Shown here piece after piece: positions 2,433 through 23,212 of a DNA stretch of 23,212 bases. The notes under the pieces were generated by a model. The model made no database searches and was not told where the DNA came from. It worked only from the letters and a program-made list of their open reading frames with translations. Numbering within the stretch: the stretch's first letter is position 1; each line of letters opens with the position of its first letter. Source of the stretch: Elusimicrobiota bacterium (lineage in GTDB: Bacteria > CG03 > SLGR01 > JBDRKX01); the NCBI GenBank assembly GCA_043813605.1, contig JBDRKX010000069.1, positions 1 through 23,212 on the forward strand. Direction: 5' to 3'. A program made the translations under genes and the position numbers.

Positions 2433-2436
2433 TTTA

Positions 2437-4484: not shown

Positions 4485-4485
4485 T

Positions 4486-7657: not shown

Positions 7658-8589
7658 GAAAATAACAGCTCCTTGAATCCCTTCAACACCTCTATGCCTT
7701 TCACCTCATTTGCCTGCAGCGGGACAATGGTTATTTTAAGCGTATTGAATTTTTCTTTTATCGCTTTTATATATTTCTCCTGGTCCTTTTTTTTAGCCTG
7801 GCAAAAATCGCATTTTCTGGATTCTAAAACATTATTTACTACTAACTGTTTTACATTTATGCCGTATTTATTAAGACTGTTTACCAATCTTTCAGTCTCT
7901 GAAATAGCCATATCTTCCGGTATGGTCACCGGTATAAACTCGCATTTCGAACTGTCTTTCAATATGCTTTCAACTTTTTTTACCGTCTTTTTCAGATCTA
8001 CAAGAAAATGATCGCCTTCATCGGGTTTATAATCTCCGGAAAGCCTTTTTACTATATATCTATACTTCCATCTCATTTGAGCCATTACTTTGATCCAGTC
8101 ATCTAACAGTCCCGGCAGGGTAAGCAGCCTTAAGGCATGCCCGGTGGGTGCGGTATCAACAATATATTTATCGTATCCCGATTTTTCTATTAAATCTACT
8201 ATTGTTTTAAATCCCATAACTTCGTCTAATCCGGGGATAGACAATGCGAACAGGGACTCGATATCTTCATCATCCATATAAGTCGAAGTTCCCAGGATCG
8301 TCTTTATCTCATTCTCATGCTCAATTTTAAATTCTTCAAAGGTCTCTTCTGCGCTTATTTCAAGGCCGCTTAAATGCTCGAAAGTTTTAATCTTTATTAT
8401 TGAATTCCCGATCTTCTGCCCTATACTGTCTGCCAGAGAATGGGCCGGGTCTGTAGATATCATTAAAGTATTATACACTTCCGATAAGTAAATTCCGGCA
8501 CCTGAAGCGCAGGTTGTTTTGCCTACTCCGCCTTTCCCGCCGAACAGAATCAGCTTTAACGAATCTTGTCTTAATCCGGATAAGCTCAC
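7654..8589 (-). CDS. ArsA/Get3-family ATPase
   Basis: Deviant Walker A LFGGKGGVGKTTCAS, ISTDPAHSLADS, switch II VDTAPTGHALRLL, and a CDFC (CxxC) motif near the C-terminus of the type Get3 uses for Zn-mediated dimerisation. The 4-nt ATGA-type overlap with the downstream Cdc48-like gene suggests translational coupling. Confidence 0.8.
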   Translation of the reverse strand: MSLSGLRQDSLKLILFGGKGGVGKTTCASGAGIYLSEVYNTLMISTDPAHSLADSIGQKIGNSIIKIKTFEHLSGLEISAEETFEEFKIEHENEIKTILGTSTYMDDEDIESLFALSIPGLDEVMGFKTIVDLIEKSGYDKYIVDTAPTGHALRLLTLPGLLDDWIKVMAQMRWKYRYIVKRLSGDYKPDEGDHFLVDLKKTVKKVESILKDSSKCEFIPVTIPEDMAISETERLVNSLNKYGINVKQLVVNNVLESRKCDFCQAKKKDQEKYIKAIKEKFNTLKITIVPLQANEVKGIEVLKGFKELLFS

Positions 8590-8595
8590 TGCTTC

Positions 8596-9126
8596 CTACT
8601 TTTTTATTCTTATTTCTAATATTCCGTTTGTATAGGAAAACGAAAGATTTGCGGCCTCGGCTTCTGCCGGGAGCAGTATTTCTTTATGGTACTTTCTTGA
8701 CCCGCCGCTGGCTGAAATATCAAGAACATCGCCTTTTAAATCCAGCTTTATATCTTTCTGATTTATCCCCGGCATTTCGGCATATACCCTGATCTCATTC
8801 TTCTCGTCAAACACATCAACAATAGGCTCTCTTTCTTCTTCTACCCTGGCGCCCTTATCAGTCTTTTTAATATTTCCAAACGACTCTACTACGGGTTTAC
8901 CACCCACGGCCGACTTTATTGAAAAGCCGAATACTCCTTTGGCTCCATTCTTAATATTGCCGAAGTCTATCTCTCCCTCTTTTTTTATTTCGCCGCCGGC
9001 TTCTTCCAGTTTCTGAGCAAGATCTACTAATTTTTCTATACCCTTAAATATTCCTCCCACGCTCAGCTTTCCTATGCCGAAATCCACTTCTATATCTTCT
9101 TTTTTTTTCTCTTTTTTCTTTACCAT
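8596..9126 (-). CDS. gvpH: Hsp20/alpha-crystallin family small heat-shock protein (GvpH-like)
   Basis: The C-terminal alpha-crystallin domain PIVDVFDEKNEIRVYAEMPGINQKDIKLDLKGDVLDISA...LPAEAEAANLSFSYTNGILEIRIKK includes the GILEI/IxI-like tail. The Lys/Gly-rich N-terminus is encoded over an A9 homopolymer. Confidence 0.8.
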   Translation of the reverse strand: MVKKKEKKKEDIEVDFGIGKLSVGGIFKGIEKLVDLAQKLEEAGGEIKKEGEIDFGNIKNGAKGVFGFSIKSAVGGKPVVESFGNIKKTDKGARVEEEREPIVDVFDEKNEIRVYAEMPGINQKDIKLDLKGDVLDISASGGSRKYHKEILLPAEAEAANLSFSYTNGILEIRIKK

Positions 9127-9145
9127 ATTTTTCCTCTCTTTCAGA

Positions 9146-9460
9146 TTAATAACTTATAGCCATTCTTTTAATAGATCTGGCGGACTTGTTCTCTACAGTT
9201 TTAATTTCAGTTTCACTTTGTACTTCTTTTTGTAAACTCTCCAGACGCCCGTTGATACTGTCTATTTTTTTTATCAGACTTGCTTTTCTTTTTTCCATTG
9301 ACTCAAACTCCTTTTTAAGCCTGCCCTGTTCCAATATAAGAGAATACATCTCCAGGCACGAGGTCCTCTGCATCTTTGGAATTGAACGAAGCCCTGTGCC
9401 GCGCAGGCTCTTTATGTCTGTGAGGCCCGGCAACTGCTCTAATCTCTTTATGTTATGCAT
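9146..9460 (-). CDS. Hypothetical coiled-coil protein (104 aa) in gvp operon
   Basis: ORF track. Predicted coiled coil (LKKEFESMEKRKASLIKKIDSINGRLESLQKEVQ). Its start overlaps the gvpN stop by 13 nt. No family recognised. Confidence 0.4.
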   Translation of the reverse strand: MHNIKRLEQLPGLTDIKSLRGTGLRSIPKMQRTSCLEMYSLILEQGRLKKEFESMEKRKASLIKKIDSINGRLESLQKEVQSETEIKTVENKSARSIKRMAISY

Positions 9461-10386
9461 CGTGCTACACGCTCCTTTTGATTTTTCTCAACCAGCTCCC
9501 TGATTATCTCTTTGACTCTATCCTGGTTGGATCTCGAACCTACTCTGCTGGTTTCTGATGCAAGGATGTCCTGGCATATCTGTTTAAACTCCCCGTTTGA
9601 TTTTATTGGAGAGAGGTTCCGCATTTTAAGGGTCTTGGCAATCATAATGCATCCGCGTATAGTAGGAGAAAATTCGCATTTTCCGGAATCCCTTAAACCT
9701 CTTGCGATATTGACTATTATTTCCGCATGCTTTTTTGACATGTTTGATTTCGACCTGGTTATAGCTACCTCTGTCTCATAATCAAAGTGTTCCAAATCTA
9801 AGGTCACCATTCTATCCCTCAATGCATCCTGGCTTCTGTGAACACCTGCGTATTCTTCCGGATTACTGGTAAATATAGCCTTAAAATCTGCGTTAACTTT
9901 CAGGTATGGGCTGTCTCCTCTTGATTCAGGTAAGTCCATTATCCTTTCCTGCAGAATGGAAAGGAGTATGTTATTTGCTTCGGGCCGGGAACGGGTAAAC
10001 TCGTCGTAAATAAGTGTGTAACCGTATTTACACGCAACTGTAAGACGGTTATCTACCCATTTTTTCACCATATCCTCTTCTGTCTTTAATACCCGGGATA
10101 TGAATCTGTCAACAACTTTTTTTATCCTGTAACCATACTCGCCGCCAACAAGACTGGATGTTGTAAACTCTTCATCACCGTGTATCATAACAACGGGCCT
10201 GCCTAGCTTGCTGGCAATATGCATAGCCAGAGTTGTCTTACCGGTTCCCGACGGGCCCCTCAAATGAACCGGAAAACCCGAATTAATATAGGAAATTGCT
10301 CTACCGGTAATATTCTGAACATATTTTGTGTTCACAAAATCCGGCATAGGTGTCGGGTCAATTACTGTACTTGTATCATCAATCAT
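9448..10386 (-). CDS. gvpN: Gas vesicle protein GvpN (MoxR/CbbQ-like AAA+ ATPase)
   Basis: FPVHLRGPSGTGKTTLAMHIASKLGRPVVMIHGDEE (Walker A plus GvpN-specific flank), Walker B TLIYDEFTRSRPE, length 312 aa. Confidence 0.9.
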   Translation of the reverse strand: MIDDTSTVIDPTPMPDFVNTKYVQNITGRAISYINSGFPVHLRGPSGTGKTTLAMHIASKLGRPVVMIHGDEEFTTSSLVGGEYGYRIKKVVDRFISRVLKTEEDMVKKWVDNRLTVACKYGYTLIYDEFTRSRPEANNILLSILQERIMDLPESRGDSPYLKVNADFKAIFTSNPEEYAGVHRSQDALRDRMVTLDLEHFDYETEVAITRSKSNMSKKHAEIIVNIARGLRDSGKCEFSPTIRGCIMIAKTLKMRNLSPIKSNGEFKQICQDILASETSRVGSRSNQDRVKEIIRELVEKNQKERVARCIT

Positions 10387-10404
10387 ATCGCTTCTCCCTT
10401 TAGT

Positions 10405-10560
10405 TTATCTTCTGCATGCAAACCAAACCTGTTTCTTGTTGCCTGCTTTTACTGCGTTTTCTGTCCCATTACAAACCGGACAGGCTCCTGTAGTATGAAC
10501 CAGATTTAAAGGCGCTGCCTTGCCTGTTCCTTTACAAAACGAATATCTATCTGCATCCAT
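10405..10560 (-). CDS. Small zinc-ribbon-like ORF (51 aa), unannotated in the track
   Basis: Own translation: MDADRYSFCKGTGKAAPLNLVHTTGACPVCNGTENAVKAGNKKQVWFACRR, i.e. C-x17-CxxC-x18-C including a CxxCxGxx motif. RBS GAGGAAA lies 6 nt upstream. Sits between the repeat-protein gene and gvpN. Confidence 0.35.
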   Translation of the reverse strand: MDADRYSFCKGTGKAAPLNLVHTTGACPVCNGTENAVKAGNKKQVWFACRR

Positions 10561-10605
10561 CTTATTTTCCTCTACCTTTACCTTTTTCTCCGTTTTTATT
10601 CTTGT

Positions 10606-10983
10606 TCATGACATTTTTTTTGCACCTTTAGCAGACCTATTCCCATCTGCTCCCATCCTTTTATTTCTTAAAGTCTCAGCCATCAGGTTCCAGATTTGCC
10701 TACTTTCGGCCAAATCTTCTTTTACTTCCTCTTCCTTTCTTCTGAAATCCTCTTTTAAAGTGTTGACACTATTAACCAGGTCTTCTCTTGTTTCCTGTAA
10801 GCCAATCTTCAACTCATTACTCATCCTCTGGTGCATTCTTTTAGACTCGATTAAGAACTTCCTTGCCTTATCTCTTATAGCTTTCGCATCCTTTTTGAGG
10901 TTTTTAATGCCCCTTCTTCTATCTTCGTAACTCATTACAATGTCTTCACTAAGAGACTCCATCCCTGTTGACACTTTACCCAT
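10606..10983 (-). CDS. Alpha-helical repeat protein, paralogue C of a three-member family (candidate GvpC-like)
   Basis: N-terminal motif SEDIVMSYEDRRRGIKNL shared with the ORFs at 11332-12135 (TEDIVGSFNERVKAIGDL) and 12152-12733 (LKNVLTSYDEGVHSIGSI). Internal FLIESKRMHQRMSNEL resembles the FxxEHKxMSxEL repeats of paralogue B. Confidence 0.5.
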   Translation of the reverse strand: MGKVSTGMESLSEDIVMSYEDRRRGIKNLKKDAKAIRDKARKFLIESKRMHQRMSNELKIGLQETREDLVNSVNTLKEDFRRKEEEVKEDLAESRQIWNLMAETLRNKRMGADGNRSAKGAKKMS

Positions 10984-10986
10984 AAA

Positions 10987-11331
10987 CTAACCTCCTTTTA
11001 GAACAACTCCTTTGCCCCCACATTTGATACAGGGTAATCCGCTACCTCCTGTCCGGCCGGTGCCTTTGCACTCTTCACATTCTTCGGTTGAACCTATTAC
11101 TGTAACGCTTCCCTTGCCACCGCATACTGTACAGGTAATACGGCTATGAGGGTAAATACCACTGCCTTTACAAAAAACGCATTTAATCACAGGTTCCTTA
11201 ACTTCAACCTTACCCTTACCCAGGCATACCTGACAAGTAGAAAGCTTTGATAACAGCTTAAAAGGATCCTTTCCTTTTCCATTACAAAAAGCACATTTAA
11301 TCAGGCTCATATTTTTATCTTTTCGCTCCAA
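10987..11331 (-). CDS. DnaJ-type zinc-finger repeat protein with six CxxCxGxG motifs
   Basis: CAFCNGKG, CQVCLGKG, CVFCKGSG, CTVCGGKG, CEECKGTG and CIKCGGKG in 114 aa. The motif is diagnostic of the DnaJ Cys-rich domain (Pfam DnaJ_CXXCXGXG). No J-domain in this ORF. Confidence 0.7.
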   Translation of the reverse strand: MERKDKNMSLIKCAFCNGKGKDPFKLLSKLSTCQVCLGKGKVEVKEPVIKCVFCKGSGIYPHSRITCTVCGGKGSVTVIGSTEECEECKGTGRTGGSGLPCIKCGGKGVVLKGG

Positions 11332-12135
11332 CTACCTTTTATGTACTGCACAGAATTTAGAACCCTTAACAGATTTTCCCTTACAGTTTTTCCCGGACTT
11401 CGTAGTGCCAGCACATTTACTTACTCCCCTGCCCTTTTTAACAGTTTTGCTGATCTCTGATGTCTTTTTTCCGGCATCAATCTTAGGCACTACACCTTCC
11501 TTCCTGGCTTTGTTCAATACTGAAGACATTCCCTGCCAGGCTTCCTTTGCTTTTTTCATATCCAAATCACATTCACCCAGGAACCCTTTAACATCACTGA
11601 CAATACCGCCAACATATTTACCTAAACTCTTTCTCAATGCATCACTCATATCAGAATGTTCTTCATTAAACTCCTTTAACTTCTGTGAAACATCGCATTC
11701 GATATTTTTAATGCTTTCATTGATACTCCCCATCATATCTTTAAAGTCTTTTAACCTATCAACTTCGCCTTTTGCTAAGCCTTTTTTAAGAAAATCCGCC
11801 ATCTCCTTATGCTCTTTCTGAAAACTTTTGATCATATTCCCTACTTCATCGGTCATATTCCCAACAAAATTTCCTAAGTCTTTTGTCAGTTCAATACTCA
11901 TCTGTTTATGTTCTGTCTGGAATTCTTTCAGAAAATTTTGTACGTTCTTTGACAATCCATCTACAAATGCAGCCAAATCATCTGCCTGTTCCTTACTCAT
12001 CTTTTTTCTGTCCAACTTGAACTTTTTCAAAGTTTCTTGGGTATCAACAGTTAAATCACCAATTGCCTTTACCCGCTCATTAAAGGACCCAACAATGTCT
12101 TCTGTAACCTTTTTCATTTCATTTGCAACAACCAT
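11332..12135 (-). CDS. Alpha-helical protein with exact 33-residue repeats (candidate GvpC analogue), paralogue B; C-terminal Lys/Cys/His tail
   Basis: Phe39/Phe72/Phe105 anchor three repeats at exact 33-aa spacing: KFKLDRKKMSKEQADDL, EFQTEHKQMSIELTKDL and SFQKEHKEMADFLKKGL. A looser fourth copy is EFNEEHSDMSDALRKSL. The tail reads KCAGTTKSGKNCKGKSVKGSKFCAVHKR. It lies second after gvpA, near where gvpC usually sits. Confidence 0.55.
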   Translation of the reverse strand: MVVANEMKKVTEDIVGSFNERVKAIGDLTVDTQETLKKFKLDRKKMSKEQADDLAAFVDGLSKNVQNFLKEFQTEHKQMSIELTKDLGNFVGNMTDEVGNMIKSFQKEHKEMADFLKKGLAKGEVDRLKDFKDMMGSINESIKNIECDVSQKLKEFNEEHSDMSDALRKSLGKYVGGIVSDVKGFLGECDLDMKKAKEAWQGMSSVLNKARKEGVVPKIDAGKKTSEISKTVKKGRGVSKCAGTTKSGKNCKGKSVKGSKFCAVHKR

Positions 12136-12151
12136 CTTTTTCCTCCTTACA

Positions 12152-12733
12152 TTACTTACTTTTACTATACTTCCCCAGCATCACTTTAAAATCATTTATC
12201 TTTAGGACTTTCCCCTTGGAAAGAAGCTCTCCGAGGTCATCTGCCAATGCCTTTTGTATGTTTTGAAATTCGATAAGCTTTTCTGAAATCTCTTTTTTGC
12301 TCTTTTCCTGATCGCTGATCGCTTCTCTATTAACTTCATATAACTCCCGGGACTGTATCTTCTTACCACTAATTAGAGAAACCTTAATAAGTTCCATATT
12401 TTTCCTTAACTTATATGCCGCTTCTTTCTGCTCATTAAGGTATCTCTTAAATAACCTCCTGATTTCTTCCATGGTTTGGTCCTGCACAGAAATTATTTCT
12501 TTCATCATATTGTCAAAATCTTTTTTCCGCAGATGTTCATTTATAGAAAGATTGTTTTTTAGTTCCTCACTTATTTTCTGCCTTTCCTTATCTGCGCCAA
12601 GTATGGATTCCTGGAAACTTCCGATGATCAGATGGGCATCATCAAATATTGACCCTATACTGTGAACACCTTCATCATAAGAAGTCAAAACATTTTTTAG
12701 AATTTTACTTGCATTTACTGTTGTGTTAGTCAT
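12152..12733 (-). CDS. Alpha-helical repeat protein, paralogue A (candidate GvpC-like), immediately downstream of gvpA
   Basis: Shares the N-terminal motif and a repeat-like segment LIEFQNIQKALADDL with paralogues B and C. RBS AAGAAGGA precedes the ATG. Confidence 0.5.
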   Translation of the reverse strand: MTNTTVNASKILKNVLTSYDEGVHSIGSIFDDAHLIIGSFQESILGADKERQKISEELKNNLSINEHLRKKDFDNMMKEIISVQDQTMEEIRRLFKRYLNEQKEAAYKLRKNMELIKVSLISGKKIQSRELYEVNREAISDQEKSKKEISEKLIEFQNIQKALADDLGELLSKGKVLKINDFKVMLGKYSKSK

Positions 12734-12851: not shown

Positions 12852-13058
12852 TTACGCTGCTGTTGCGGTCAAGCCTATTGCTTCAGCATATTTCAGGTAA
12901 GTTTCTACTGATGCAACTACAACACGCGCTTCGATAGCAAGCAGCTCGATTCCCACTAATGAGAATCTCACCCATGCGTCAATCACGACCCCCTTGTCCA
13001 GTATCCGGTCGACAACATCGACAAGACTGGAAGAACCAATTGCTTTTTCCATTGCCAT
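12852..13058 (-). CDS. gvpA: Gas vesicle major structural protein GvpA
   Basis: [63 protein letters not shown] is the near-invariant GvpA core. AGGAGG RBS (plus strand cctcct 13067-13072) lies 8 nt upstream. Confidence 0.95.
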
Positions 13059-13235: not shown

Positions 13236-13263
13236 ATTATACCTATAATATATTATTTGTCAA
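13236..13263 (-). promoter_or_regulatory. Consensus sigma70-type promoter for gvpA (TTGACA-N16-TATAAT)
   Basis: Minus strand reads cTTGACAaataatatattataggTATAATagg. The -35 element is at 13263-13258 and the -10 element at 13241-13236. Predicted TSS is near 13229, giving a 5' UTR of about 170 nt. Confidence 0.5.
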
Positions 13264-13289: not shown

Positions 13290-15494
13290 TCAAGAAAGGT
13301 TATTGACACATTCTATGAATTTCTTCAAATTAAACGGTTTTGACATGTATTCATCCGCGCCGCATCTGAATATCCGTTCTTTAGTGCCGGGCATATCATA
13401 ACCGGTTATAGCCAGGATCTTCATACCCTTGTTATCAGGGTCATTGTGTATTGATTCGCACAACTGAAAACCATTGATCCCCGGCAGCTTCAGATCCAGG
13501 ATAACCAGATCCGGCCTCAAGGCCTTCACTTGTTTAAGAGCGTCTAATCCATCACCGGTTGACGCAATTTCATAATCATATTTTGATTTCTTCAGCAGCA
13601 GCCTTGTTATGATGTTTATTATGTTATTTTCATCATCTACTATCAGCACCTTTTTCTTCTTCTTTTTTTCTTCTAAATCCGAAACGCTCTTCTTATATTC
13701 ACGGGACTTCGATATACGGCGTTCATTCCATGGATACAATTCCGATATCCTTACATTATTCAATACTATTCCCATGATTGAGGCATGTACTTTTTCAAGC
13801 TGGTCTTTAGCCTTTTTCAAAAGAGCCCCTGAAGATATCACATTATGATGGACCAGGATAACTGCATCAACCTTAGTAGACAGGATAACAGGTTCTGCTG
13901 AAAGGAGCAGCGCCGAAGAGTCAAATATGATCAATTCATATTCTTTCCTGGCCTGCTCTATAAATTGATCCATCTTCCGGGAATTCAGCATATTAGCCGG
14001 ATTCTCTTCTTTTCCGCATGTTATTATTTTTAAATTTTCTTTGTTATCCAAGCTAAATGCATTTTCCCCGTATTTTTCAGGAATATCTTTCACCGCGTTC
14101 TTCCAATCCATCTTACCCATGATTATTTCACTTAAACCGCCGCCCGGCGGAAGACCGAATATCTGCCGGATCAAAGATTCACCCTTACCGGCATCAATAA
14201 ACAGCGTTTTTATCCCGGCGGCAGCGCTCGCTATCGCATAATTAACTGCAATCAGCGTTTTCTCTTCTTCAAGGCAGACACCGGTGAATAATAAGACTCC
14301 CGCATTCTTCTCCGGCAGCGTAAATTTAATATTCATCCATAAAGTAAAATATGCTTCGGTAACAGATGCTTTTGCAGAATAATTAAAGAGCAGCCTGTTT
14401 CTGAGACTTTCTATCTTACAAGATGCATTTGAACGTTTAAAAAAATTGAAATCGGACTTAGCTGTTTTTTTGTCCTTTATCTGAGGGATGACTCCAAGAA
14501 CGGGGATATTTATGTCATTCTCCATTTTTTCTATGTCCCGCAAAAAGACCTCATTTGTACCTGTTTTTAACGTTAATATAAACCCGAATATGACCCCGAA
14601 AATTCCACCGAACAACAGTTTCACAGGCAGATCCGGTTTTAACGGTTGAACGGGGATAACAGCGGGGGAGATCACCTGCATACTGGCGAGATTATCAAAA
14701 TCTTCAAACATAGCTTCTCGATATTTCTCTTTCAGCTGTTCACGGAATTCTTCATCCGCTTCGATCTTTTTCAATATAAGGTCTTTTTGAACAGCCTTAT
14801 CCAGTTCCTTTTCTACTTCTTCGATCTGATCCTGTATTTCGATAACAGCCGGGTGCTTATAATTAAACTTCCTACGCAGCTTTATCTGATCGAGCTTAAG
14901 TCCGCTTAAGTCTGTTTTAAGCTCATTTGCATTATTAATGAATCCGCGCTTTTCTGTTAAGTCATCTATCTGGCTCCTTTTCTGTTCTATAAGTGCCCCT
15001 ATATCATCTAGCTGTTCCTCATACCGGCTTTTTACTTTCTGCCCTTTTTTAATTTTCTGATCCTCGGTTTTTTCTATATATATCTTAACCATGTTGTTAA
15101 CAATTCCTGCTGCTCCTTCGGCGCTGTCGAGCCTGGCAGTAAGTTGAATAATATTGGTGCCTTTTACCCGTTCTGCTGAAACATGTTTCTGTAAATAATC
15201 GATCTTCATGTTTTTATCATCAAAGGCAATACCCGGATACAGGATTCCCGTATATTCTGCCGCTTTATATATAACTGAATAACTTTTTATTTTTTTGCAT
15301 TCAGTCGCGATCAATTCACTAACTGCCATACCGTACTGGTTTTCCATAATTTTGTCTCTTTCTGAATGCAATTTTATTTCAAGTAAAGCGCTGCTTTCAA
15401 AAACCGGTTTCTGTACAAAGCTGACAACTATTGCGGTAACTATGCCGATAATAACGCTATAGATTATCTTTTTCATGTTTCTGTTAATAATCAT
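13290..15494 (-). CDS. Wzc/PCP-2-like polysaccharide co-polymerase with degenerate BY-kinase P-loop and C-terminal receiver (REC) domain
   Basis: N-terminal TM plus Wzz-like region, coiled coil, second TM LLFGGIFGVIFGFILTL. The kinase-like domain has its Walker A position as FTGVCLEEEKT instead of GEGKS/T, with Walker A' LFIDAG and Walker B LIIFDSS. C-terminus: KKVLIVDDENNIINIITRLL...DLVILDLKLPGINGF...KPF, a CheY-like REC. Confidence 0.75.
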   Translation of the reverse strand: MIINRNMKKIIYSVIIGIVTAIVVSFVQKPVFESSALLEIKLHSERDKIMENQYGMAVSELIATECKKIKSYSVIYKAAEYTGILYPGIAFDDKNMKIDYLQKHVSAERVKGTNIIQLTARLDSAEGAAGIVNNMVKIYIEKTEDQKIKKGQKVKSRYEEQLDDIGALIEQKRSQIDDLTEKRGFINNANELKTDLSGLKLDQIKLRRKFNYKHPAVIEIQDQIEEVEKELDKAVQKDLILKKIEADEEFREQLKEKYREAMFEDFDNLASMQVISPAVIPVQPLKPDLPVKLLFGGIFGVIFGFILTLKTGTNEVFLRDIEKMENDINIPVLGVIPQIKDKKTAKSDFNFFKRSNASCKIESLRNRLLFNYSAKASVTEAYFTLWMNIKFTLPEKNAGVLLFTGVCLEEEKTLIAVNYAIASAAAGIKTLFIDAGKGESLIRQIFGLPPGGGLSEIIMGKMDWKNAVKDIPEKYGENAFSLDNKENLKIITCGKEENPANMLNSRKMDQFIEQARKEYELIIFDSSALLLSAEPVILSTKVDAVILVHHNVISSGALLKKAKDQLEKVHASIMGIVLNNVRISELYPWNERRISKSREYKKSVSDLEEKKKKKKVLIVDDENNIINIITRLLLKKSKYDYEIASTGDGLDALKQVKALRPDLVILDLKLPGINGFQLCESIHNDPDNKGMKILAITGYDMPGTKERIFRCGADEYMSKPFNLKKFIECVNNLS

Positions 15495-15506
15495 TGACTG
15501 CCTTCT

Positions 15507-15956
15507 TTATCCGTCAATTATACTCCCATGTTTTTGATCCTTTATTTTTAACGCTTCCCTGACCTTGTCATAAAGGTGTGCAAGCGTAAACGGTTTGGGC
15601 AGATAAAAATCAACGCCTGATGAAAAGCCCTCTTCCACTTCACCTACTCTGCTTTTTACTGTCAGCATGATAATCGGTATATGCCTGTGTTTAACGATAT
15701 CGCTTCTTTTCAATTTCCATGCTACTTCTAAACCGTTCATAGCGGGCATCTCATTGTCCAGGATGATAAGGTCCGGATGCTCTTTTTTTACTTTTTCAAG
15801 AGCTTCGAGTCCCTCTGCAGCAGTTATGATCCTGTAATCACATTCAAATATGCGTTTTAATATATTTCTTATGTATTCTTCATCATCTACTATGAGAATA
15901 GTATTTTTTTTCATTTTATTATTTTCTTTCGTACATGTTTTTAAGGATCCTGGCAT
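15507..15956 (-). CDS. Single-domain response regulator (CheY-like receiver)
   Basis: NTILIVDDEEYIRNILKRIFE...DLIILDNEMPAMNGLEV...YLPKPF. The true start is more likely the internal Met (MKKNTILIVDD, ATG at 15914), which abuts the upstream stop, than the track start at 15956, which overlaps it. Confidence 0.8.
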   Translation of the reverse strand: MPGSLKTCTKENNKMKKNTILIVDDEEYIRNILKRIFECDYRIITAAEGLEALEKVKKEHPDLIILDNEMPAMNGLEVAWKLKRSDIVKHRHIPIIMLTVKSRVGEVEEGFSSGVDFYLPKPFTLAHLYDKVREALKIKDQKHGSIIDG

Positions 15957-17364
15957 TCTTCAGCCTTTCCCGGGCCTTATTGTTTGACGGAGCGTCTTTT
16001 ATTACTTTTTCGTAAGCGCTGATTGCCTCATCGTAATTCTCAAAGCCCATCATCGTTTCTCCAATGTAAAAATATAGTTGTGCATCGGTAGGATCAAAGC
16101 CTGAATTATTTTCTTTATCCATGTTCAATTCAAGCGCAGTTTTAAAACAATTATATGCAGTTTCTATTACTCCCTCTTTTAACAGCAGAACGCCATTATC
16201 ATAAAGTTGTTTTCTTCTAACAGCTATTCTGTTATTCTTTGACGGTTCTCGTGTTATTTTTAACTTTTTGTTTACAGGGACCTGTATCGTTTTTTCTTCT
16301 TCTACGGCTTTCGCCGCGATATTCATTACACGCGGGATCTCAACAACACCTGTGCCTGTTTTACCGGCCTTACTGATATGTATGTTTTTTATACCTATAA
16401 TCATGATGACCAGCAGCCCGGCAAAAACAAAAACCAATCTACTCCGGTAAAATAGTGATTTATTGTTATATACCGAACCGTTTTCACCGGTGATACGCAG
16501 ACAGTAACTTTTTTTCCGGTAGATAAATTCTACTTTTTTCATTATTATACGCCGGAGAGAGATATCCATTCTGAATATTTTCCAGCCCTTATCAGCTGCC
16601 GGATCATTGATCCGGTCATATATTTTTTCAATATAACTTTTAATATAATCCGGCTTGATCGCATCCAGAACCATACTATCCGGATTTTTTAATCTGTTAT
16701 ATACAGTGCCCCTGAATATATTATCACCATCAATTTTTGTTATATCTTTATCTTTTAGCTTAAGCGGTGACAATATACCCTTAAAACACTGCGGTGAATA
16801 CACAGTTCTATAGCATTCGTACGTAACTGTTTTTCCTGTGCCTTCACAGGCAGGACAATGCCGGGTTCTTCTCCGTATTTTTTTTATCTTTCCCGAACAT
16901 ACCCTGCAATTCATGATCCTTTCAGATCCGGGAACTATTTTTTCTGATTCTTTTCCTTCCTCAAAACCGCGGGGAGGAGCTCTGTACGGCAATACATGCA
17001 ATGATACCGGGACGTATTCAGCCGATACATCTTCTCCCCTGTATACACGCATTCCGCTATTCAGTGACCTTTTGACAAATAGAACACTGATTTCAAACAG
17101 ATAATTCTGTTCCGATATAACCTTATTTATACTGCTTTGCTCTCCGGGATCAAAGCGGGATATCCTTTTTTTCCCGGCCCAGAACGCCAGATTTTTCCGG
17201 ATACCGGATATGTCTTTAGCAGAAATATTTTTGTTTACTATATACTCTTTCTTATTTAAAAATTCTTTCCTGGTAATTTCTATTCCTGTCTTGATCTTTT
17301 TGCGTATTTCCTTGTCAAAAATAATATTATCGTAAGAGCGGGATATAATCCGGTCTTTCTTCAT
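15919..17364 (-). CDS. Membrane-anchored protein with zinc-ribbon (CxxCxG...CxxCxGxG) and C-terminal TPR repeats
   Basis: CRVCSGKIKKIRRRTRHCPACEGTGKT; TM LVFVFAGLLVIMIIGI; TPR-like AYNCFKTALELN...YDEAISAYEKVIKDAP. Confidence 0.55.
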   Translation of the reverse strand: MKKDRIISRSYDNIIFDKEIRKKIKTGIEITRKEFLNKKEYIVNKNISAKDISGIRKNLAFWAGKKRISRFDPGEQSSINKVISEQNYLFEISVLFVKRSLNSGMRVYRGEDVSAEYVPVSLHVLPYRAPPRGFEEGKESEKIVPGSERIMNCRVCSGKIKKIRRRTRHCPACEGTGKTVTYECYRTVYSPQCFKGILSPLKLKDKDITKIDGDNIFRGTVYNRLKNPDSMVLDAIKPDYIKSYIEKIYDRINDPAADKGWKIFRMDISLRRIIMKKVEFIYRKKSYCLRITGENGSVYNNKSLFYRSRLVFVFAGLLVIMIIGIKNIHISKAGKTGTGVVEIPRVMNIAAKAVEEEKTIQVPVNKKLKITREPSKNNRIAVRRKQLYDNGVLLLKEGVIETAYNCFKTALELNMDKENNSGFDPTDAQLYFYIGETMMGFENYDEAISAYEKVIKDAPSNNKARERLKNARILKNMYERK

Positions 17365-17374
17365 GTTATTTATG

Positions 17375-19132
17375 TCAATCCATCCCGGCCCATTCAGCCT
17401 GCTGCTTTAGCTGCTTAAGGAGAGTTATCGCTTCGCCGGAGTTCACCTCTACAGTACCTGTCCACCCGAGATCCTCATCTATTATTATTTCCAGACCGTG
17501 TATCCCGGCAGAAACACCTTCTATTACCAGCGGTGTTGCGCCGGCTTCAGCTTTATCCAGATATACCAAAGCGCTGCTCGGTACAGAATAAACTTTAATA
17601 ATACCTGTTTTCATCTTCTTGAGATCAGCTGAAACTGTATACGCCGCGAAACTTTTAACAGTAACGTTTTTTTCAAAAGATTCATACCCTTCTTTTTCAA
17701 TTCTGATATCATGTATTCCGGCAGATACTCTTTCAATAAATAAAGGCGCTGCTAATCCGACAAATTCTGAATCGATATAGACCCGCGCGTCAAGCGGAGA
17801 TGACGTGACCAGAAGCGACCCGTCTTCCTCTGAAATATCAATAGTGATCTCCTCAACATCTCCCGGAAACACTTCAACTTCTTTGCTGCTGGACTTATAT
17901 CCCTTTTTTTTAACAGCGATCTCATATACACCGACAAATAAATTTTCGATTTTACAGGGCGACAACCCGTGAAATTCATTATTTATGTATACATCTGCTT
18001 TTTTCGTATTCGTTTTTATTTTTAACCCTCCCTTCTGCGCCTCCAGTTTGACATCGGTCCTTGTTACTGACCCTTCTGATATCCTGACCGCCTGGTTATA
18101 TACTTTGTATTTATCATTTATGATTGATATGTTATGAATACCAACGGGTATATGATGCATATCGACATCCGTCCTGCCGTAATGCTCTCCGTTAATATAT
18201 ATTTTTGCACCAAAAGGCACTGAAGTCACTGATAATGCGCCGTACTTTTTCTTTTCCGGCGGTTCACTGTTTAAATCTAAAAAATACCTTTCTTGTGGTT
18301 TCTCTGTCTTGAGCCAATCCGGCTCCAAGACATCCTTGTTGATGGATATATGACTGGCAAAGACATTTTCCTTTATTTTGTTGTCAGTTATGTATACGCT
18401 TACAACGATATCCTCTCCCTGAACCCTGTAAGTCCCGCTTAAAACACATGAATCCTGCAATGAACCGGCCACAGCTATATTTTCAGCCGCGATCCTTACC
18501 TTGATGTCATTCTCCAGGATATTACTGAAAAAATACCTGCCCTGGCTTATCAGTTCCGTAAATTCACCTACCAGTATTTGCCTGATATTGTTTTTCTGAA
18601 GCCTTAACAGGACTTCATCGCATAAAATATCTATTTTTTCTTCATAATCATTAAGAGCCAGATGTATTCTTTCTTTTTCTTTTTCTATTTCAATCTTTGA
18701 ATAACGCGCAAGTATATAAACACTGAATAATTTATTCTTCTTGTCCTGTTCGCAGTACATTTCTTTTATAATTGTGCCCTGAACATTTGCTGAGGCGTAT
18801 AATTTAGTCTCCTCGGCCAGCTGATCTATCAACCTTGATTTTCTTGATATCAGTTTTAAAGATACCTTCATTCCCATATACTTGACTACCTGTTCAAGTA
18901 CATCCTGTGCGGCCGCTTCCCTCCCCTCTTCAATTGTTTTCTCATTAGTTTTTATTCCTACAAAATAGACATAATTATTATCGGGCAGCGGCGGTTTCGA
19001 GATCCATCCCGGTTTCTCACCTGTGGTATTGGAAACCGGATTTTTTGTTTCTGCAAAAACCCTGTTTAAGGAAATAATACTTATGCATATTACCGCCCCT
19101 TTGATTATTTTTATAATATATTTGTATTCCAT
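17375..19132 (-). CDS. Secreted LPP20-like N-domain protein with four C-terminal PEGA domains
   Basis: Signal peptide MEYKYIIKIIKGAVICISIISLNRVFA. LPP20-like motif KPGWISKPP...YVYFVGI. Four repeats of the PEGA pattern (VTSVPFGAKIYINGEHYG; KTNTKKADVYINNEFHG; VTSSPLDARVYIDSEFVG; VYSVPSSALVYLDKAEAG). Confidence 0.7.
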   Translation of the reverse strand: MEYKYIIKIIKGAVICISIISLNRVFAETKNPVSNTTGEKPGWISKPPLPDNNYVYFVGIKTNEKTIEEGREAAAQDVLEQVVKYMGMKVSLKLISRKSRLIDQLAEETKLYASANVQGTIIKEMYCEQDKKNKLFSVYILARYSKIEIEKEKERIHLALNDYEEKIDILCDEVLLRLQKNNIRQILVGEFTELISQGRYFFSNILENDIKVRIAAENIAVAGSLQDSCVLSGTYRVQGEDIVVSVYITDNKIKENVFASHISINKDVLEPDWLKTEKPQERYFLDLNSEPPEKKKYGALSVTSVPFGAKIYINGEHYGRTDVDMHHIPVGIHNISIINDKYKVYNQAVRISEGSVTRTDVKLEAQKGGLKIKTNTKKADVYINNEFHGLSPCKIENLFVGVYEIAVKKKGYKSSSKEVEVFPGDVEEITIDISEEDGSLLVTSSPLDARVYIDSEFVGLAAPLFIERVSAGIHDIRIEKEGYESFEKNVTVKSFAAYTVSADLKKMKTGIIKVYSVPSSALVYLDKAEAGATPLVIEGVSAGIHGLEIIIDEDLGWTGTVEVNSGEAITLLKQLKQQAEWAGMD

Positions 19133-19205
19133 AAGATTTCCTTTAAGGGCTTCATCCTGCTTCTTTTCAATGCCTCCTGAATCATATTTAATTTTGAATA
19201 TTTAA

Positions 19206-19802
19206 CTAATCTTCAAGTTTCTCAAGCAGCTTTACCGCTGCCAGTTCCGCATCCTTATCCAGCTGTTTTCTTGCTTTTGAAGCCAGTCCTTTTATAGCCA
19301 TTTTTCTGCCTGTCTTATAATCACTTTCAGGGAGCTTGAGTAATGCCGAACAATTAAAGAAATATCTCACTCCTGATTCAGTAATCTCTTCGACCTTCTC
19401 GTAATAGTATTCTATAGGGAAGAGCCCGCTGATATTTATGTTATCCGCTACCATTGCAATACCGTCCTGCACGAACCTGCCCAGATCTTCTGTTGAAAGA
19501 TTTACTCCCCGGGTATTTTCAATAAATTCTGTTCTTGCTTTTGTTTGAATTGATTCAGCGACATTCTTCATCGCTTCCGCTTTTGCCTGACGGAGTCCGA
19601 CAGCGTAATCTCCTACACCTTTAACTGTGCCGCTGAAATACATCATCTCTTTTTTCTCATAAAACGGCACCTGCAGCCATTCAGGCTGCTGTATGGCGCT
19701 TTTCTCGACGATCCTTTGAGAGCCTACTTTCAGCGGGACTCCCGCGCATCCGCTAAAAAGCACCAGCGCAGTCAACATAAATAAACAAGAAATACTTTTC
19801 AT
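19206..19802 (-). CDS. LPP20-family lipoprotein
   Basis: Lipobox LFSGC after the signal peptide. PEWLQVP...YFSGTVKGVGDYA...AKAEAMKNVAE matches the LPP20 pattern. RBS GGAGA lies upstream. Confidence 0.7.
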   Translation of the reverse strand: MKSISCLFMLTALVLFSGCAGVPLKVGSQRIVEKSAIQQPEWLQVPFYEKKEMMYFSGTVKGVGDYAVGLRQAKAEAMKNVAESIQTKARTEFIENTRGVNLSTEDLGRFVQDGIAMVADNINISGLFPIEYYYEKVEEITESGVRYFFNCSALLKLPESDYKTGRKMAIKGLASKARKQLDKDAELAAVKLLEKLED

Positions 19803-19826
19803 CCTACATCTCCTTAATCTTTCTCT

Positions 19827-22124
19827 TCATTTGACTATTCCCGTATTCTCCTTTGCCATACTTCCGAAGGTCTCACATGCCCCTTCGACAAATATTTTTA
19901 ATTCCGCGAGTTCAAACGGTTTTTCCAGATATGATGCTCCAAGATCCCGGCATACCTGCCGGATCTTATCGGTTCCAAAACCCGTCAAAATCATCACCTC
20001 AATATTTTTTCCCATTTTTTTGATCTGTTTTAATACATGTATGCCGTTCATAAAACCGGGCATCCTTATATCAATGATCGCTATTGACACGTTATTGCTT
20101 TTAATGATTTCGACGGCCTCTCTGCCGTTTGAAGCTAAAAGCGTATTAAATCCTCTCCCATCAAAATATTTGCTTAAAACATTCTTTATACCTTTCTCAT
20201 CATCCGCTATAAGGATATCCACGTCTCTATTTGCCGTTTTCCCGCCGCCGGATAATTGGCCGTTTTTTGAATTTGACGGCTCCGGCGTATACGACGGCAC
20301 CATTAGAAGTAATTTATTAAAAAAAGAATTACTGTTTTCTTCTTCTATTGTTCTTTTCAACTCTCTGAAATCCCTGTAAATATTCCTTATAGAAGTTTTC
20401 CCCGGCTCTACTTTAAATATTTTTTCATGCTCTGTTTCGGTTATCTTCTCATCGTCACCGATCAGAGCCTCATGCATTTTTTCTCCCGGGCGTAATCCTG
20501 TGATCCTGATCTTTATATCACTGCCGGGTTCTTTTCCTGAAAGCCTTATCAGGTCTCTGGCTATATCGATTATCTTTTCCTGTTTCCCCATTTCCAGCAC
20601 GAATATCTCCCCTCCGTCACCCATAAAACCCGCTTCGATCACCAATCCGGATGCTTCGGGGATAGTCATGAAATATCTTTTTATTTCAGGATCCGTTACT
20701 GTTACCGGCCCGCCGTTTTCTATCTGTTTTTTAAATGTCGGGATAACGCTTCCCTGGCTTCCCATTACATTACCGAACCTTACAACCATGAACTTGGTCC
20801 CGTTTATGCCCGCCATTGCAATAACATATGTTTCTGCGATCTTTTTTGAAACGCCCATTACGCTGGTAGGCGCTACCGCTTTATCCGTAGAGAGCATTAT
20901 AAACCGCTCGACCCCGGACCTCACAGCCTCCTCTGCCATTATTTTTGTCCCGAACACATTATTCTTGATCGCCTCCATAGGATTTGACTCCATTAACGGG
21001 ACATGTTTATGCGCCGCGGCATGAAACACGATATCCGGCTTATGCTTTTTATAAATTTCTGCTACTCTTTTCCTGTCGCACATATCACCGATTACAGGTA
21101 CTTTTTTAAGATCTATAAAAGACTGCCCCAGTTCCATATCTATATGGAATAATGGATTTTCCGATTTCTCAAAAAGTATCAGTTCATCCGGATGCAGCCT
21201 GGCAACCTGACGGCATAATTCCGAACCTATTGAACCTCCGGCGCCCGTTATCAGGACCTTTTTGCCCTTTATATAGCTGCGGGCTTTTTCCGCATCAATC
21301 ACCACCTCATCCCTGTTGAGCAGATCTTCGATCCTGACCTCGCGCAGTTCTCTTACTTTGATCGTACCGTCAACCACCGCTGAAAGGTTTGGAACAGTCC
21401 TGTATTTTGCGCCGCTCTTTATGCAATAGTTCACTATATCCCTCATTTGTCCGGGAGAAAGTTTTGGTATGGCTATAACTATTTCCTCAATATTATTGTC
21501 CCTTACGATATCCGGGATATCTGTTCTTTTTCCCATGACCTCAACTTCATGTATCCTTTTTCCTGTTTTTCCCGCATCGTCATCAATCAATCCGATAACC
21601 TCGTAACTATGCCTGTAGTGGTACAACATCTCCCTGAGCAGCATCTCGCCCGCGTCTCCTGCGCCTACGATCAGGATCTTCTTTTTCTTACCGTTTTTGG
21701 CGCCTTCCTTAAACCTGTACGGCCTGGTCAGACGGATAACGAACCTTATGCCGCTCAATGTAACAATGAGTAAAAGCCAGTCAATTATGAATACTGACCG
21801 GGGATGCCCCGGATAAAACGCCATTGCCGCTGCCGCATTAACTATCGAGCTGATGCTGACGGCCTTTATTATCTGTATAAGATCCTTTATGCTGGCATAC
21901 TGCCGAATGCCCCTATTAAGCCTGAAATACGCCACAGCTGCCATCCTCACGATCACCATCAACGGCAGCGCGCCTATCATGATCTTGAAATATCCTGCGG
22001 GTAATGCCCCGTCAAACCTTATCAAGTATGCGGTTATGTAACAGGCGGCAATAGCGACAACGTCAACGACATGAATTAACTTTTCATGCCAGTCTGTTTT
22101 TATCCTGTATAAATCGATATTCAC
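19827..22124 (-). CDS. CapD/PglF/WbpM-like membrane polysaccharide biosynthesis dehydratase fused to C-terminal receiver (REC) domain
   Basis: Four N-terminal TM helices. Two Rossmann motifs KILIVGAGDAGE and KVLITGAGGSIGSEL. Catalytic region STDKAVAPTSVMGVSK. C-terminus DILIADDEKGIKNVL...IAIIDIRMPGFMNG...LEKPF is a REC domain. Confidence 0.85.
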   Translation of the reverse strand: MNIDLYRIKTDWHEKLIHVVDVVAIAACYITAYLIRFDGALPAGYFKIMIGALPLMVIVRMAAVAYFRLNRGIRQYASIKDLIQIIKAVSISSIVNAAAAMAFYPGHPRSVFIIDWLLLIVTLSGIRFVIRLTRPYRFKEGAKNGKKKKILIVGAGDAGEMLLREMLYHYRHSYEVIGLIDDDAGKTGKRIHEVEVMGKRTDIPDIVRDNNIEEIVIAIPKLSPGQMRDIVNYCIKSGAKYRTVPNLSAVVDGTIKVRELREVRIEDLLNRDEVVIDAEKARSYIKGKKVLITGAGGSIGSELCRQVARLHPDELILFEKSENPLFHIDMELGQSFIDLKKVPVIGDMCDRKRVAEIYKKHKPDIVFHAAAHKHVPLMESNPMEAIKNNVFGTKIMAEEAVRSGVERFIMLSTDKAVAPTSVMGVSKKIAETYVIAMAGINGTKFMVVRFGNVMGSQGSVIPTFKKQIENGGPVTVTDPEIKRYFMTIPEASGLVIEAGFMGDGGEIFVLEMGKQEKIIDIARDLIRLSGKEPGSDIKIRITGLRPGEKMHEALIGDDEKITETEHEKIFKVEPGKTSIRNIYRDFRELKRTIEEENSNSFFNKLLLMVPSYTPEPSNSKNGQLSGGGKTANRDVDILIADDEKGIKNVLSKYFDGRGFNTLLASNGREAVEIIKSNNVSIAIIDIRMPGFMNGIHVLKQIKKMGKNIEVMILTGFGTDKIRQVCRDLGASYLEKPFELAELKIFVEGACETFGSMAKENTGIVK

Positions 22125-23212
22125 CTTTCTCTCCTTAATACACTTTTACTGTCACACCATTTATGTATCCTTTCTATGGCCCGGCAAACCTTACGTACTG
22201 CGCTTTCTTCCATATCCCCGTACAGCGGAAGCGCCAGCCCCTCGCTGGAAGCTCTTTCGGTTACAGGCAGATCGCCCCTGTATTTCAGTCCCTGCCTGCG
22301 GTATGCCTTCTGCATATGCACTGCCGGATAAAAGTATTTTTTTGTCTGTATATTTTCAGCATTGAGAGCGGCATACAGGTTATCTCTGCTCATACCGAAC
22401 TTTTCTTCGTCAACAAATATGGCCATATAGTTTCCGGAAGTGCTGCTGCCTTCAAGCACTTCCTGGAAACTGATCCCGTCAATAAAACTCAAAAAGTCTT
22501 TATATATATCGATCAGCCTGCGTCTCGTTCTCAGGTGCTTCCCTATGTTCTCCAGGTTTTTTAAACCGACAAGAGCATGTATTTCACTCATCCTTGCGCT
22601 CAGACCCGGGAAGTCGATATCGCTGCCGCTGTCGTTTTTCCCGTAATCACGGGCGCTCTTTAAAAAACAGGCGAGTTTATCATCATTAGTTGTGATCAGC
22701 CCGCCCTCAAGAGCCGTAAGGCATTTTGTCGGGCTTAAACTGAAAACCTCGCAATTTCCGAATCCTCCGGCGCTTTTCCCCTGATACCGCGCCCCGAACC
22801 CCTGAGCGGAATCAAAGATCAGTTTCAGATCATGCTTCCGGGCGATCTCCTCGAGTTCCTTCATCTCTGGAGGATTACCGAAAACATATACAGGCATGAT
22901 AGCCGATGTACTGCCGGTGATCTTTTCTTCTATTTTATCTGCATCCATGTTATAGGTCTTTTGTTCACAATCGGTAAAAACCGGTTTTATATTATTCCAG
23001 GCAAGAGAATGTACGGTTGCCGTGAATGTAAAACTGGGCACGATAACTTCACCGCTCAAACCCAGCCCCATAACGGCAAGAATAAGCCCGCTTGTCGCGC
23101 TCGAAACAGCTACAGCATGTTCAACCCCCAGGTATTCAGCGCTCGCTTCTTCCAATTTTCTTACGTAATCACCCGAAGTAACCCTTCCTGATATAAATAT
23201 CTTTTTAATTTC
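22121..23212 (-). CDS. DegT/DnrJ/EryC1/StrS-family PLP-dependent sugar aminotransferase; 5' end beyond window
   Basis: SATSGL, DSAQGFGARYQGK (Schiff-base Lys region), FSLSPTKCL. The frame stays open past the ATG at 23155 to the window edge (EIKKIFISGRVTSGDYVRKLEEASAEY). The 4-nt overlap with the downstream CapD-like gene suggests coupling. Confidence 0.85.
   Translation of the reverse strand, partial: EIKKIFISGRVTSGDYVRKLEEASAEYLGVEHAVAVSSATSGLILAVMGLGLSGEVIVPSFTFTATVHSLAWNNIKPVFTDCEQKTYNMDADKIEEKITGSTSAIMPVYVFGNPPEMKELEEIARKHDLKLIFDSAQGFGARYQGKSAGGFGNCEVFSLSPTKCLTALEGGLITTNDDKLACFLKSARDYGKNDSGSDIDFPGLSARMSEIHALVGLKNLENIGKHLRTRRRLIDIYKDFLSFIDGISFQEVLEGSSTSGNYMAIFVDEEKFGMSRDNLYAALNAENIQTKKYFYPAVHMQKAYRRQGLKYRGDLPVTERASSEGLALPLYGDMEESAVRKVCRAIERIHKWCDSKSVLRRER

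Follow-up and report, generated by a model that had tools for sequence, protein, structure and literature searches.

The window analysed here is the entire 23,212-bp contig JBDRKX010000069.1 of a metagenome-assembled genome (MAG) labelled Elusimicrobiota at NCBI. Its right half (positions 13290–23212, hereafter the module) carries polysaccharide-biosynthesis genes, and two of the encoded proteins, a Wzc-like polysaccharide co-polymerase (PCP) and a PglF-type UDP-N-acetylhexosamine (UDP-HexNAc) 4,6-dehydratase, end in intact CheY-like receiver (REC) domains. A third, single-domain REC is encoded between them. The most likely reading, of moderate confidence, is that a His-Asp phosphorelay with several receiver targets sets the surface-polysaccharide output post-translationally at several steps. 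The two fusion proteins can be described as variants of known proteins, namely a PCP-2a protein with a pseudokinase domain and a receiver, and a PglF-type dehydratase with a receiver.

All open reading frames (ORFs) of note in the window lie on the minus strand. Adjacent genes in the right half overlap or are 10–73 nt apart on this one strand, which is consistent with a single operon starting beyond the contig. The DegT gene, which overlaps the dehydratase-REC gene by 4 nt, has no in-frame upstream stop as far as base 23212 (region 23000–23212) and runs off the right contig edge. The polysaccharide operon is therefore incomplete, and any glycosyltransferases, flippase and polymerase would lie beyond this edge. 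An exact look-up of three window proteins returned no longer contig carrying them, and no Rfam RNA elements were found in the window. The features of the module, in the direction of transcription, are:

22121–23212, minus strand: DegT/PglE-like pyridoxal phosphate-dependent aminotransferase, N-terminus cut by the contig end (PF01041, 315.8 bits)
19827–22124, minus strand: PglF/CapD/WbpM-type UDP-HexNAc 4,6-dehydratase with C-terminal REC, 765 aa (Pfam)
19896–20216, minus strand: REC of the dehydratase, residues 637–743 (PF00072, 82.9 bits)
19206–19802, minus strand: lipoprotein of 198 aa with lipobox LFSGC, possibly LPP20-like (signal and lipobox identified in the sequence)
17375–19132, minus strand: exported protein of 585 aa with an LPP20-like N-terminal part and four PEGA domains (PF08308, 172 bits, four stretches)
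15919–17364, minus strand: single-pass membrane protein of 481 aa with a DnaJ-type zinc finger, a transmembrane (TM) helix and a TPR region (Pfam and orthologs)
15507–15956, minus strand: single-domain response regulator of 149 aa (PF00072, 92.6 bits)
13290–15494, minus strand: PCP-2a/Wzc-like co-polymerase with C-terminal REC, 734 aa (Pfam, NCBIfam, AlphaFold, Foldseek)
14256–14282, minus strand: degenerate Walker A motif GVCLEEEKT of the Wzc-like protein, reading S-x-x-x-x-E-G-K-[ST] in relatives (alignment)
13305–13649, minus strand: REC of the Wzc-like protein, residues 616–730, with the acceptor Asp in VILDLKLPG (PF00072, 90.8 bits)

Receiver domains

The initial annotation had placed a complete REC at the end of both the Wzc-like protein and the dehydratase, with a stand-alone REC between them. 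This was confirmed by Pfam, coordinates and strand included, as all three domains scored far above the Response_reg cutoff of 30.2 bits. Degenerate receivers had been named as an outcome that would refute the observation, and the opposite was found: equivalents of CheY D12, D13, D57, T87, Y106, K109 and P110 are present in all three window receivers, so that the acidic pair, the acceptor Asp, the Thr and the Lys are all kept. CheY, PhoB and Spo0F served as references for this comparison, and the CheY numbering landed on the expected residues. DNA-binding domains are absent from all three receivers. With the receivers intact and lacking such an output, a direct post-translational effect of phosphorylation on the fused protein, as the initial annotation had suggested, appears to be the simplest reading. 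The absence of a histidine kinase from the window was likewise borne out, no HisKA or HATPase domain being present in any window ORF.

The Wzc-like co-polymerase

Pfam matches of the Wzc-like protein to Wzz (24.8 bits) and GNVR (18.6 bits) were below cutoff and that to CbiA was weak (24.3 bits), while the NCBIfam model TIGR01007 (bacterial tyrosine kinase (BY-kinase), eps_fam) scored 104.7 bits, slightly below its cutoff of 108.05. The architecture is that of a PCP-2a/Wzc protein, with TM helices at residues 10–28 and 291–309 enclosing some 260 aa of helical periplasmic domain, and a P-loop domain of the BY-kinase fold in the cytoplasm. The AlphaFold model has a mean predicted local distance difference test (pLDDT) score of 88.7, falling below 50 for residues 596–610, and the Lys-rich linker between the kinase-like domain and the REC is accordingly predicted to be disordered. 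In Foldseek the model matched full-length Escherichia coli Wzc with an E-value of 4.6e-28 over approximately 690 columns, and the CapAB kinase domains with target-normalised TM-scores (TMt) of 0.91–0.92.

The kinase-like region was aligned to its 146 closest representatives, retrieved by searching 1.84 billion proteins exhaustively with HMMER. Within Walker A (GVCLEEEKT) the Gly preceding the Lys is replaced by Glu, a change seen only here, as this position is Gly in 142 of 143 aligned relatives. The initial annotation had described the P-loop glycines as replaced; this holds for the Gly before the Lys, while the first Gly of GxxxxGK[ST] is retained, and the deviation extends to Walker A', Walker B and ExxRxxR as well. 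Walker A' reads FIDAGKG (DxDxR to DAGKG), with both the second Asp and the Arg replaced by Gly; the relatives have Asp (130) or Asn (13) at the former position (143 of 143 aligned) and Arg in 138 at the latter. Walker B reads FDSSA (PP to SA), the second Pro after the Asp being Ala here and Pro in 145 of 146 relatives. The ExxRxxR motif reads EAYFTLW, its two Arg replaced by Phe and Trp. The C-terminal Tyr cluster is missing, as had been noted initially, with two widely spaced Tyr in the 35 aa after the kinase-like domain compared to a typical four to eight in relatives. As Walker A, A' and B, the Tyr cluster and ExxRxxR all deviate and the TIGR01007 score falls short of the cutoff, the protein cannot be classified as a BY-kinase.

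C-terminal extensions are not unusual among the closest Wzc-like representatives, of which 45 of 146 continue for more than 110 aa past the kinase domain, most by 230–700 aa. Where such long extensions were checked they were not receivers, and five of nine (P0186, P0208, P0225, P0236 and P0253) were found to contain the peptidoglycan-binding SPOR domain.

Receiver-fused Wzc-like proteins are rare. The same HMMER search found five other Wzc-REC clusters at 50% identity, all of them singletons, with identities to the window protein of 44% (P0151), 47% (P0152), 30% (P0153) and 24% (P0192), P0154 being partial. Two named relatives come from Elusimicrobia and Atribacterota MAGs and are annotated only as "response regulator". 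P0153 (MBN2406191.1) is encoded on a 56-kb Elusimicrobia contig, while the context of P0192 is limited to a 3-kb contig. A metagenome scan added two further Wzc-REC contigs (L034 and L035). No Wzc-REC relative was returned by a word-indexed protein search, and a scan of the GTDB species-representative genomes gave matches to the receiver alone, none extending beyond it.

Within this clade the REC of the window protein is 59–64% identical to those of the other Wzc-REC proteins, and the receiver residues are conserved in most relatives. The kinase motifs are less uniform. The canonical EGKT is retained in P0151, P0152, P0153, L034 and P0192, and Tyr-rich tails of the YPHYEY and YPHYAYY type, with four to five Tyr, are retained in P0151 and P0152. 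In four of seven members (the window protein, P0153, P0154 and L034) only one or two residues of the Tyr cluster remain, five of seven no longer have the Walker A' Arg, and two, the window protein and P0154, have lost Walker A. A Trp at the second Arg of ExxRxxR occurs in five members and looks like a trait of the clade. Since the closest relatives keep both EGKT and the Tyr tail, the REC joined a functional-looking kinase first, with decay following in several members. The suggestion of the initial annotation that the protein is a pseudokinase whose regulation has been taken over by the REC thus stands in part: the decayed motifs and their distribution support a take-over as a clade-wide trend, while the fusion predates the decay and a one-step replacement does not fit.

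The receiver of the Wzc-like protein is otherwise nearest (35–48% identity) to receivers in metagenome-abundant ORFs of about 190–240 aa, of which there are many (L036–L090). One of these, at positions 190–753 of L051 and 45% identical to the Wzc-REC receiver, was identified by Pfam as an HTH_17-REC response regulator, and a family of this type is the likely donor of the fused receiver. Metagenome hits reaching upstream of the REC (query residues 565–733) were considered as further Wzc fusions and rejected, as they are stop-to-stop ORFs of 130–320 aa, most of 190–240; the L051 ORF is the one among them that was scanned with Pfam.

The receiver-fused dehydratase

The dehydratase consists of four hydrophobic N-terminal segments, CoA_binding_3, Polysacc_synt_2 (395.8 bits) and Response_reg, with a flexible linker of about 40 residues between the short-chain dehydrogenase/reductase (SDR) domain and the REC. 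Its best solved relative is Campylobacter jejuni PglF/WlaL (5BJU, E-value 1.8e-84). In the alignment to 5BJU the motifs GAGGSIG (TGAGGSIG), STDKAV and MGVSKK (MGxxK) are kept, with Met in place of the SDR Tyr. PF02719, the TM helices with CoA_binding_3, the NAD motif and the catalytic T-D-K place the protein in the PglF/CapD/WbpM group, and with its catalytic motifs kept the enzyme looks catalytically competent.

Approximately 27 clusters share this dehydratase-REC architecture at 58–62% identity to the window protein, mostly from Omnitrophota/Omnitrophica-labelled MAGs or unnamed metagenome sequences, and IMG annotates them automatically as "FlaA1/EpsC-like NDP-sugar epimerase/CheY-like". The equivalents of D12, D13, D57, T87 and K109 are conserved in 27–30 of 30 members. 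Conservation of these residues here and in most Wzc-REC relatives indicates selection for phosphorylation. A second lineage is represented by the more distant dehydratase-REC proteins P0083, P0105 and P0126.

Larger fusions with the REC at the C-terminus were also seen. P0037 (1135 aa) and P0047 (1186 aa) are composed of DegT, dehydratase and REC, and P0049 (942 aa) of Bac_transf, dehydratase and REC, each joining successive pathway steps and a receiver in a single polypeptide.

On three dehydratase-REC contigs, two long and one short, the gene order is glycosyltransferases, DegT, dehydratase-REC and then rpoN. The window DegT is 67% identical to the DegT preceding the receiver-fused dehydratase on one of them (L001). 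The rpoN gene (sigma-54) follows dehydratase-REC with an overlap of 4–13 nt on all three (L001 12262–13656, L002 12295–13683 and L003 2529–3917), a conserved pairing, and one protein from these contigs is that of an Omnitrophica MAG. It should also be noted that the window MAG is labelled Elusimicrobiota, while the named closest dehydratase-REC relatives carry Omnitrophota labels and the Wzc-REC relatives Elusimicrobia and Atribacterota labels, which makes it uncertain where the contig belongs taxonomically.

The stand-alone receiver and related loci

The stand-alone REC had been regarded as an orphan, which is refuted by its relatives. The PEGA, TPR and REC genes occur in the same order in three loci (the window, L004 and L051), and the window REC is 66% (L004) and 59% (L051) identical to the RECs following the TPR gene there, compared to about 37% for the other RECs in these loci. 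Its translation probably begins at the second Met (15914). The stand-alone REC is a conserved partner of the zinc-finger/TPR membrane protein, to which it is translationally coupled, and of the PEGA protein. The TPR protein has orthologs in L004 and L051 and a conserved CxxCxG...CxxCxGxGK zinc finger N-terminal to its TM helix, with the TPR region C-terminal. Orthologs of the PEGA protein in L004 and L051 are 46–47% identical, and the lipoprotein has a 46% identical ortholog in L004.

Weak similarity to LPP20 is seen in the 198-aa lipoprotein and in the N-terminal part of the PEGA protein, and again in the orthologs of both. For the lipoprotein the LPP20 matches are weak (E-value 0.11, and 0.07 in the ortholog), and the PEGA-protein ortholog in L051 matches LPP20 with an E-value of 3.4e-5. 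Domains of the LPP20/FlgP type form periplasmic rings in other systems.

Wzc-REC and the lipoprotein occur together in two loci, the window and L004. The order in L004 is REC (cut by the contig start), Wzc-REC, REC, PEGA, TPR, REC, lipoprotein and REC, and as the first of these RECs is 58.5% identical to that of the window dehydratase it is probably the end of a dehydratase-REC gene. In L005 a PAS-PAS histidine kinase with an N-terminal partial REC, cut by the contig start, lies upstream of Wzc-REC and a REC-GAF-HisKA protein downstream. L034 carries a REC, a GAF histidine kinase, Wzc-REC, a small ORF, Wza (Poly_export and SLBB) and a second, ordinary Wzc, and the presence of Wza beside Wzc-REC ties the latter to the Wzx/Wzy-type export pathway. 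L051 has the order HTH-REC, REC, REC, PEGA, TPR, REC, PAS histidine kinase and REC. The initial annotation had proposed looking for a cognate hybrid histidine kinase in flanking sequence. The window holds none, while the related loci do contain kinases beside the module, these being of the GAF or PAS type, and cognate kinases thus appear to exist at the level of the family as soluble GAF- or PAS-type proteins.

The gas-vesicle operon

The left half of the window is a gas-vesicle cluster with GvpN, Hsp20, ArsA, a CDC48-like AAA+ protein, four GvpF/L paralogs and a GvpA/J-GvpK fusion. The initial annotation had placed the module directly upstream of this operon, which is correct, as gvpA starts 231 nt downstream of the Wzc-REC gene on the same strand. 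The features at this junction are:

13236–13263, minus strand: promoter-like site perfectly matching the sigma-70 consensus (TTGACA-16-TATAAT), located between the Wzc-REC stop and gvpA (pattern match)
12852–13058, minus strand: gvpA, 68 aa, the first gene of the gas-vesicle operon and a neighbour, not part of the module (canonical GvpA sequence and AAAGGAGG ribosome-binding site)

The promoter-like site lies 27 nt after the Wzc-REC stop and approximately 180 nt before gvpA, and it is the sole match in the window, with 0.04 expected by chance. No terminator-like hairpin was found between Wzc-REC and gvpA, so read-through into gvpA is possible. The same type of gvp cluster was found in L114, L117 and L118 without the module genes; upstream of gvp in these loci there is either a transposase fragment or 1.4–2 kb without a called REC or Wzc-like gene, up to the contig end. 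Upstream of gvpA the window and these three loci show no conservation. Conversely, the module genes occur without gvp in four loci (L004, L005, L034 and L051), the contigs being short, and the long dehydratase-REC contigs have rpoN downstream and no gvp genes. As module and gvp occur separately and gvpA has its own promoter, their juxtaposition is most likely incidental, several of the contigs compared being short, and the gvp operon is most likely a separate unit with its own predicted promoter.

The gvp cluster itself (540–12733, minus strand) is of a recurrent type, which comprises gvpA, coiled-coil proteins, GvpN, Hsp20, ArsA and a CDC48-like double AAA+ protein, as well as a GvpF-DnaJ fusion, further GvpF genes and the GvpA/J-GvpK fusion, with GvpG present in relatives. 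The identity of GvpN across hundreds of metagenome clusters is about 78%. The small PAS protein of the relatives' gvp clusters is replaced in the window by a DnaJ-type zinc-finger protein (10987–11331, minus strand), and this protein and the TPR protein of the module share only the CxxCxGxG motif, with an E-value of 1e-4 over 30 aa.

Comparison with known systems

In common with Wzc, Etk and CapAB, the Wzc-like protein has a helical periplasmic domain between two TM helices and, after these, a P-loop domain of the BY-kinase fold, and one Wzc-REC relative (L034) adjoins Wza. It differs from them in its degenerate motifs and Tyr tail, in a periplasmic domain that is shorter by about 100 aa and in the REC lying past the normal end of the protein. 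The BY pseudokinases EcpK of Myxococcus xanthus and HfsB of Caulobacter define a subfamily of PCP-2 proteins independent of phosphorylation, in which EcpK-type pseudokinases have been proposed to guide co-polymerase assembly by protein contacts, without Tyr phosphorylation (PMC12004946). A BY-kinase-like fold without catalytic motifs and without a phosphorylatable Tyr tail is common to these and to the window protein. However, EcpK is small, stands alone and is paired with a kinase-less PCP, whereas the window pseudokinase is fused to the PCP and a REC and would keep a phosphorylation switch, but one of the His-Asp type. By the definition of the EcpK type as a stand-alone BYK-like protein (PMC12004946), the window Wzc-like protein does not belong to it.

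In M. xanthus the phosphoglycosyl transferase EpsZ is activated post-translationally by the phosphorylated form of the single-domain REC EpsW (EpsW~P), which seems to do so by stabilising the EpsZ dimer (bioRxiv 10.1101/2025.09.10.675344). This system and the window have in common a REC without an output domain acting, or here proposed to act, on a membrane enzyme with which a Wzx/Wzy pathway begins, and EpsZ and the PglF-type dehydratase share an N-terminal TM bundle and the CoA_binding_3 'DUF'; the matches of the dehydratase N-terminus to the EPS_sugtrans and WcaJ profiles are explained by this shared scaffold. The differences are that the REC is covalently fused here and that its target is a dehydratase and not a phosphoglycosyl transferase. 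EpsW receives its input from the Dif chemosensory system. The EpsW equivalog model NF041866 scored 54.3 bits with the Wzc REC against a cutoff of 200 and was missing from the 25 top-scoring NCBIfam families listed for the stand-alone REC. Going by these profile scores, the resemblance of the window receivers to EpsW is functional only and they are not EpsW orthologs.

PglF of C. jejuni, WbpM and CapD share with the window dehydratase the four TM helices, the linker Rossmann domain, the SDR motifs and an adjacent DegT/PglE-type gene. The C-terminal REC is the addition here, and in some relatives DegT or Bac_transf is fused as well. Taken together, the EcpK pseudokinase and EpsW~P/EpsZ precedents make a phosphorelay mechanism plausible.

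Proposed mechanism and alternatives

It is proposed that positions 13290–23212 represent the distal part of one tightly packed surface-polysaccharide operon and that a kinase encoded beyond this contig would phosphorylate the three receivers. The PglF-like dehydratase, with DegT, would make the first committed step to 4-amino-4,6-dideoxy-HexNAc. Phosphorylation of its REC may shift the oligomeric or active state of the enzyme and thereby gate precursor supply, by analogy with EpsW~P promoting the active EpsZ dimer. For the Wzc-like protein, Asp phosphorylation of the tethered REC would replace Tyr autophosphorylation as the switch for assembly and disassembly of the co-polymerase ring. A bolder form of this proposal is that, in a small Wzc-like clade, His-Asp phosphorylation of a REC has replaced the Tyr switch and a second REC of the same operon gates the first committed sugar-nucleotide step, the outputs of such a two-component system being entirely post-translational and directed at precursor supply as well as at polymerisation and export; this is possible, although rather doubtful.

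Several observations weigh against the proposed phosphorelay control. The kinase, Wza, Wzx, Wzy and any glycosyltransferase are all absent from the window, so that neither the pathway nor the signal is visible there. The first REC of L004 is cut by the contig end and its membership of a dehydratase is indirect. Both fusion families are known from sequence alone, and phosphorylation could mean activation, inhibition or localisation. The closest Wzc-REC relatives have an apparently intact kinase and a Tyr-rich tail, and in P0151- and P0152-type relatives the receiver would supplement rather than replace Tyr phosphorylation. Finally, K412 and T413 of Walker A and D525 of Walker B are kept in the window protein, which may therefore still bind nucleotide to some extent.

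The last two points lead to the alternative that the Wzc-like protein has kept ATPase or tyrosine kinase activity and that the REC merely modulates a conventional Tyr-phosphorylation cycle. The three kept residues fit with this, as do the canonical EGKT of P0151, P0152, P0153, L034 and P0192 and the four to five tail Tyr of P0151 and P0152, but the Glu in place of a Gly found in 142 of 143 relatives, the DAGKG and SA substitutions, the loss of the ExxRxxR Arg residues and the two spaced Tyr are difficult to reconcile with an active kinase, and no Wzb or PHP phosphatase was seen in the window or the related loci. This alternative is considered unlikely. Improbable to a similar degree is a role of the receivers as phosphorelay intermediates, phosphate sinks or localisation tags that leave the activity of the fused protein unchanged. 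Single-domain receivers and hybrid kinases are numerous in the related loci, with up to five RECs in an 8-kb locus, and such crowding is typical of branched phosphorelays including sinks. However, no Hpt domain was seen in any locus, and the same REC lineage is fused to the same enzyme in about 27 dehydratase clusters and in about seven Wzc-like proteins, a persistence which is hard to explain if the fusion partner is irrelevant.

A connection with the neighbouring operon was also weighed, namely that the receiver genes regulate, or are co-regulated with, gas-vesicle formation, coupling buoyancy to the cell envelope as the initial annotation had hinted. Two-component regulation of gvp genes does occur in Serratia, where it involves GvrA/B/C. 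In the window, the 231-nt same-strand junction without a terminator-like hairpin and the DnaJ-type zinc finger found in both the TPR protein and a gvp-cluster protein, if only as a short motif, could be taken to point this way. Against this stand the three gvp clusters of the same type with no REC or Wzc-like gene called upstream (L114, L117 and L118), the four loci with module genes and no gvp (L004, L005, L034 and L051), the rpoN found in place of gvp on the long dehydratase-REC contigs, the perfect sigma-70 consensus promoter that gvpA has of its own, and the lack of a DNA-binding domain in all three receivers. Co-regulation is thus not supported, and a link to gas vesicles is judged very unlikely. 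Phosphorelay control of the fused polysaccharide proteins remains the preferred reading.

Significance

Literature searches found no earlier description of a receiver-fused Wzc, a receiver-fused Polysacc_synt_2 protein or a PEGA protein with a response regulator, and such proteins are currently annotated just as "response regulator" or "polysaccharide biosynthesis protein". All of the evidence consists of sequence from uncultivated organisms, and the Wzc-REC series should be of use to specialists in polysaccharide export. The dehydratase-REC family would extend direct receiver control of polysaccharide enzymes from one myxobacterial case to another enzyme and to candidate phyla. How Wzc-type co-polymerases are switched is an active question, to which two answers are known, a cycle of Tyr phosphorylation and, since 2025, scaffolding by pseudokinases independent of phosphorylation. 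A Wzc-like protein with a decayed kinase and an intact REC suggests a third solution, and the relatives with both an intact kinase and a REC represent a natural series in which an oligomeric switch driven by another phosphorylation chemistry could be tested. If the replacement of the Tyr switch by REC phosphorylation is true, the clade would represent a third regulatory PCP-2 class beside the kinase-dependent and scaffold-pseudokinase classes.

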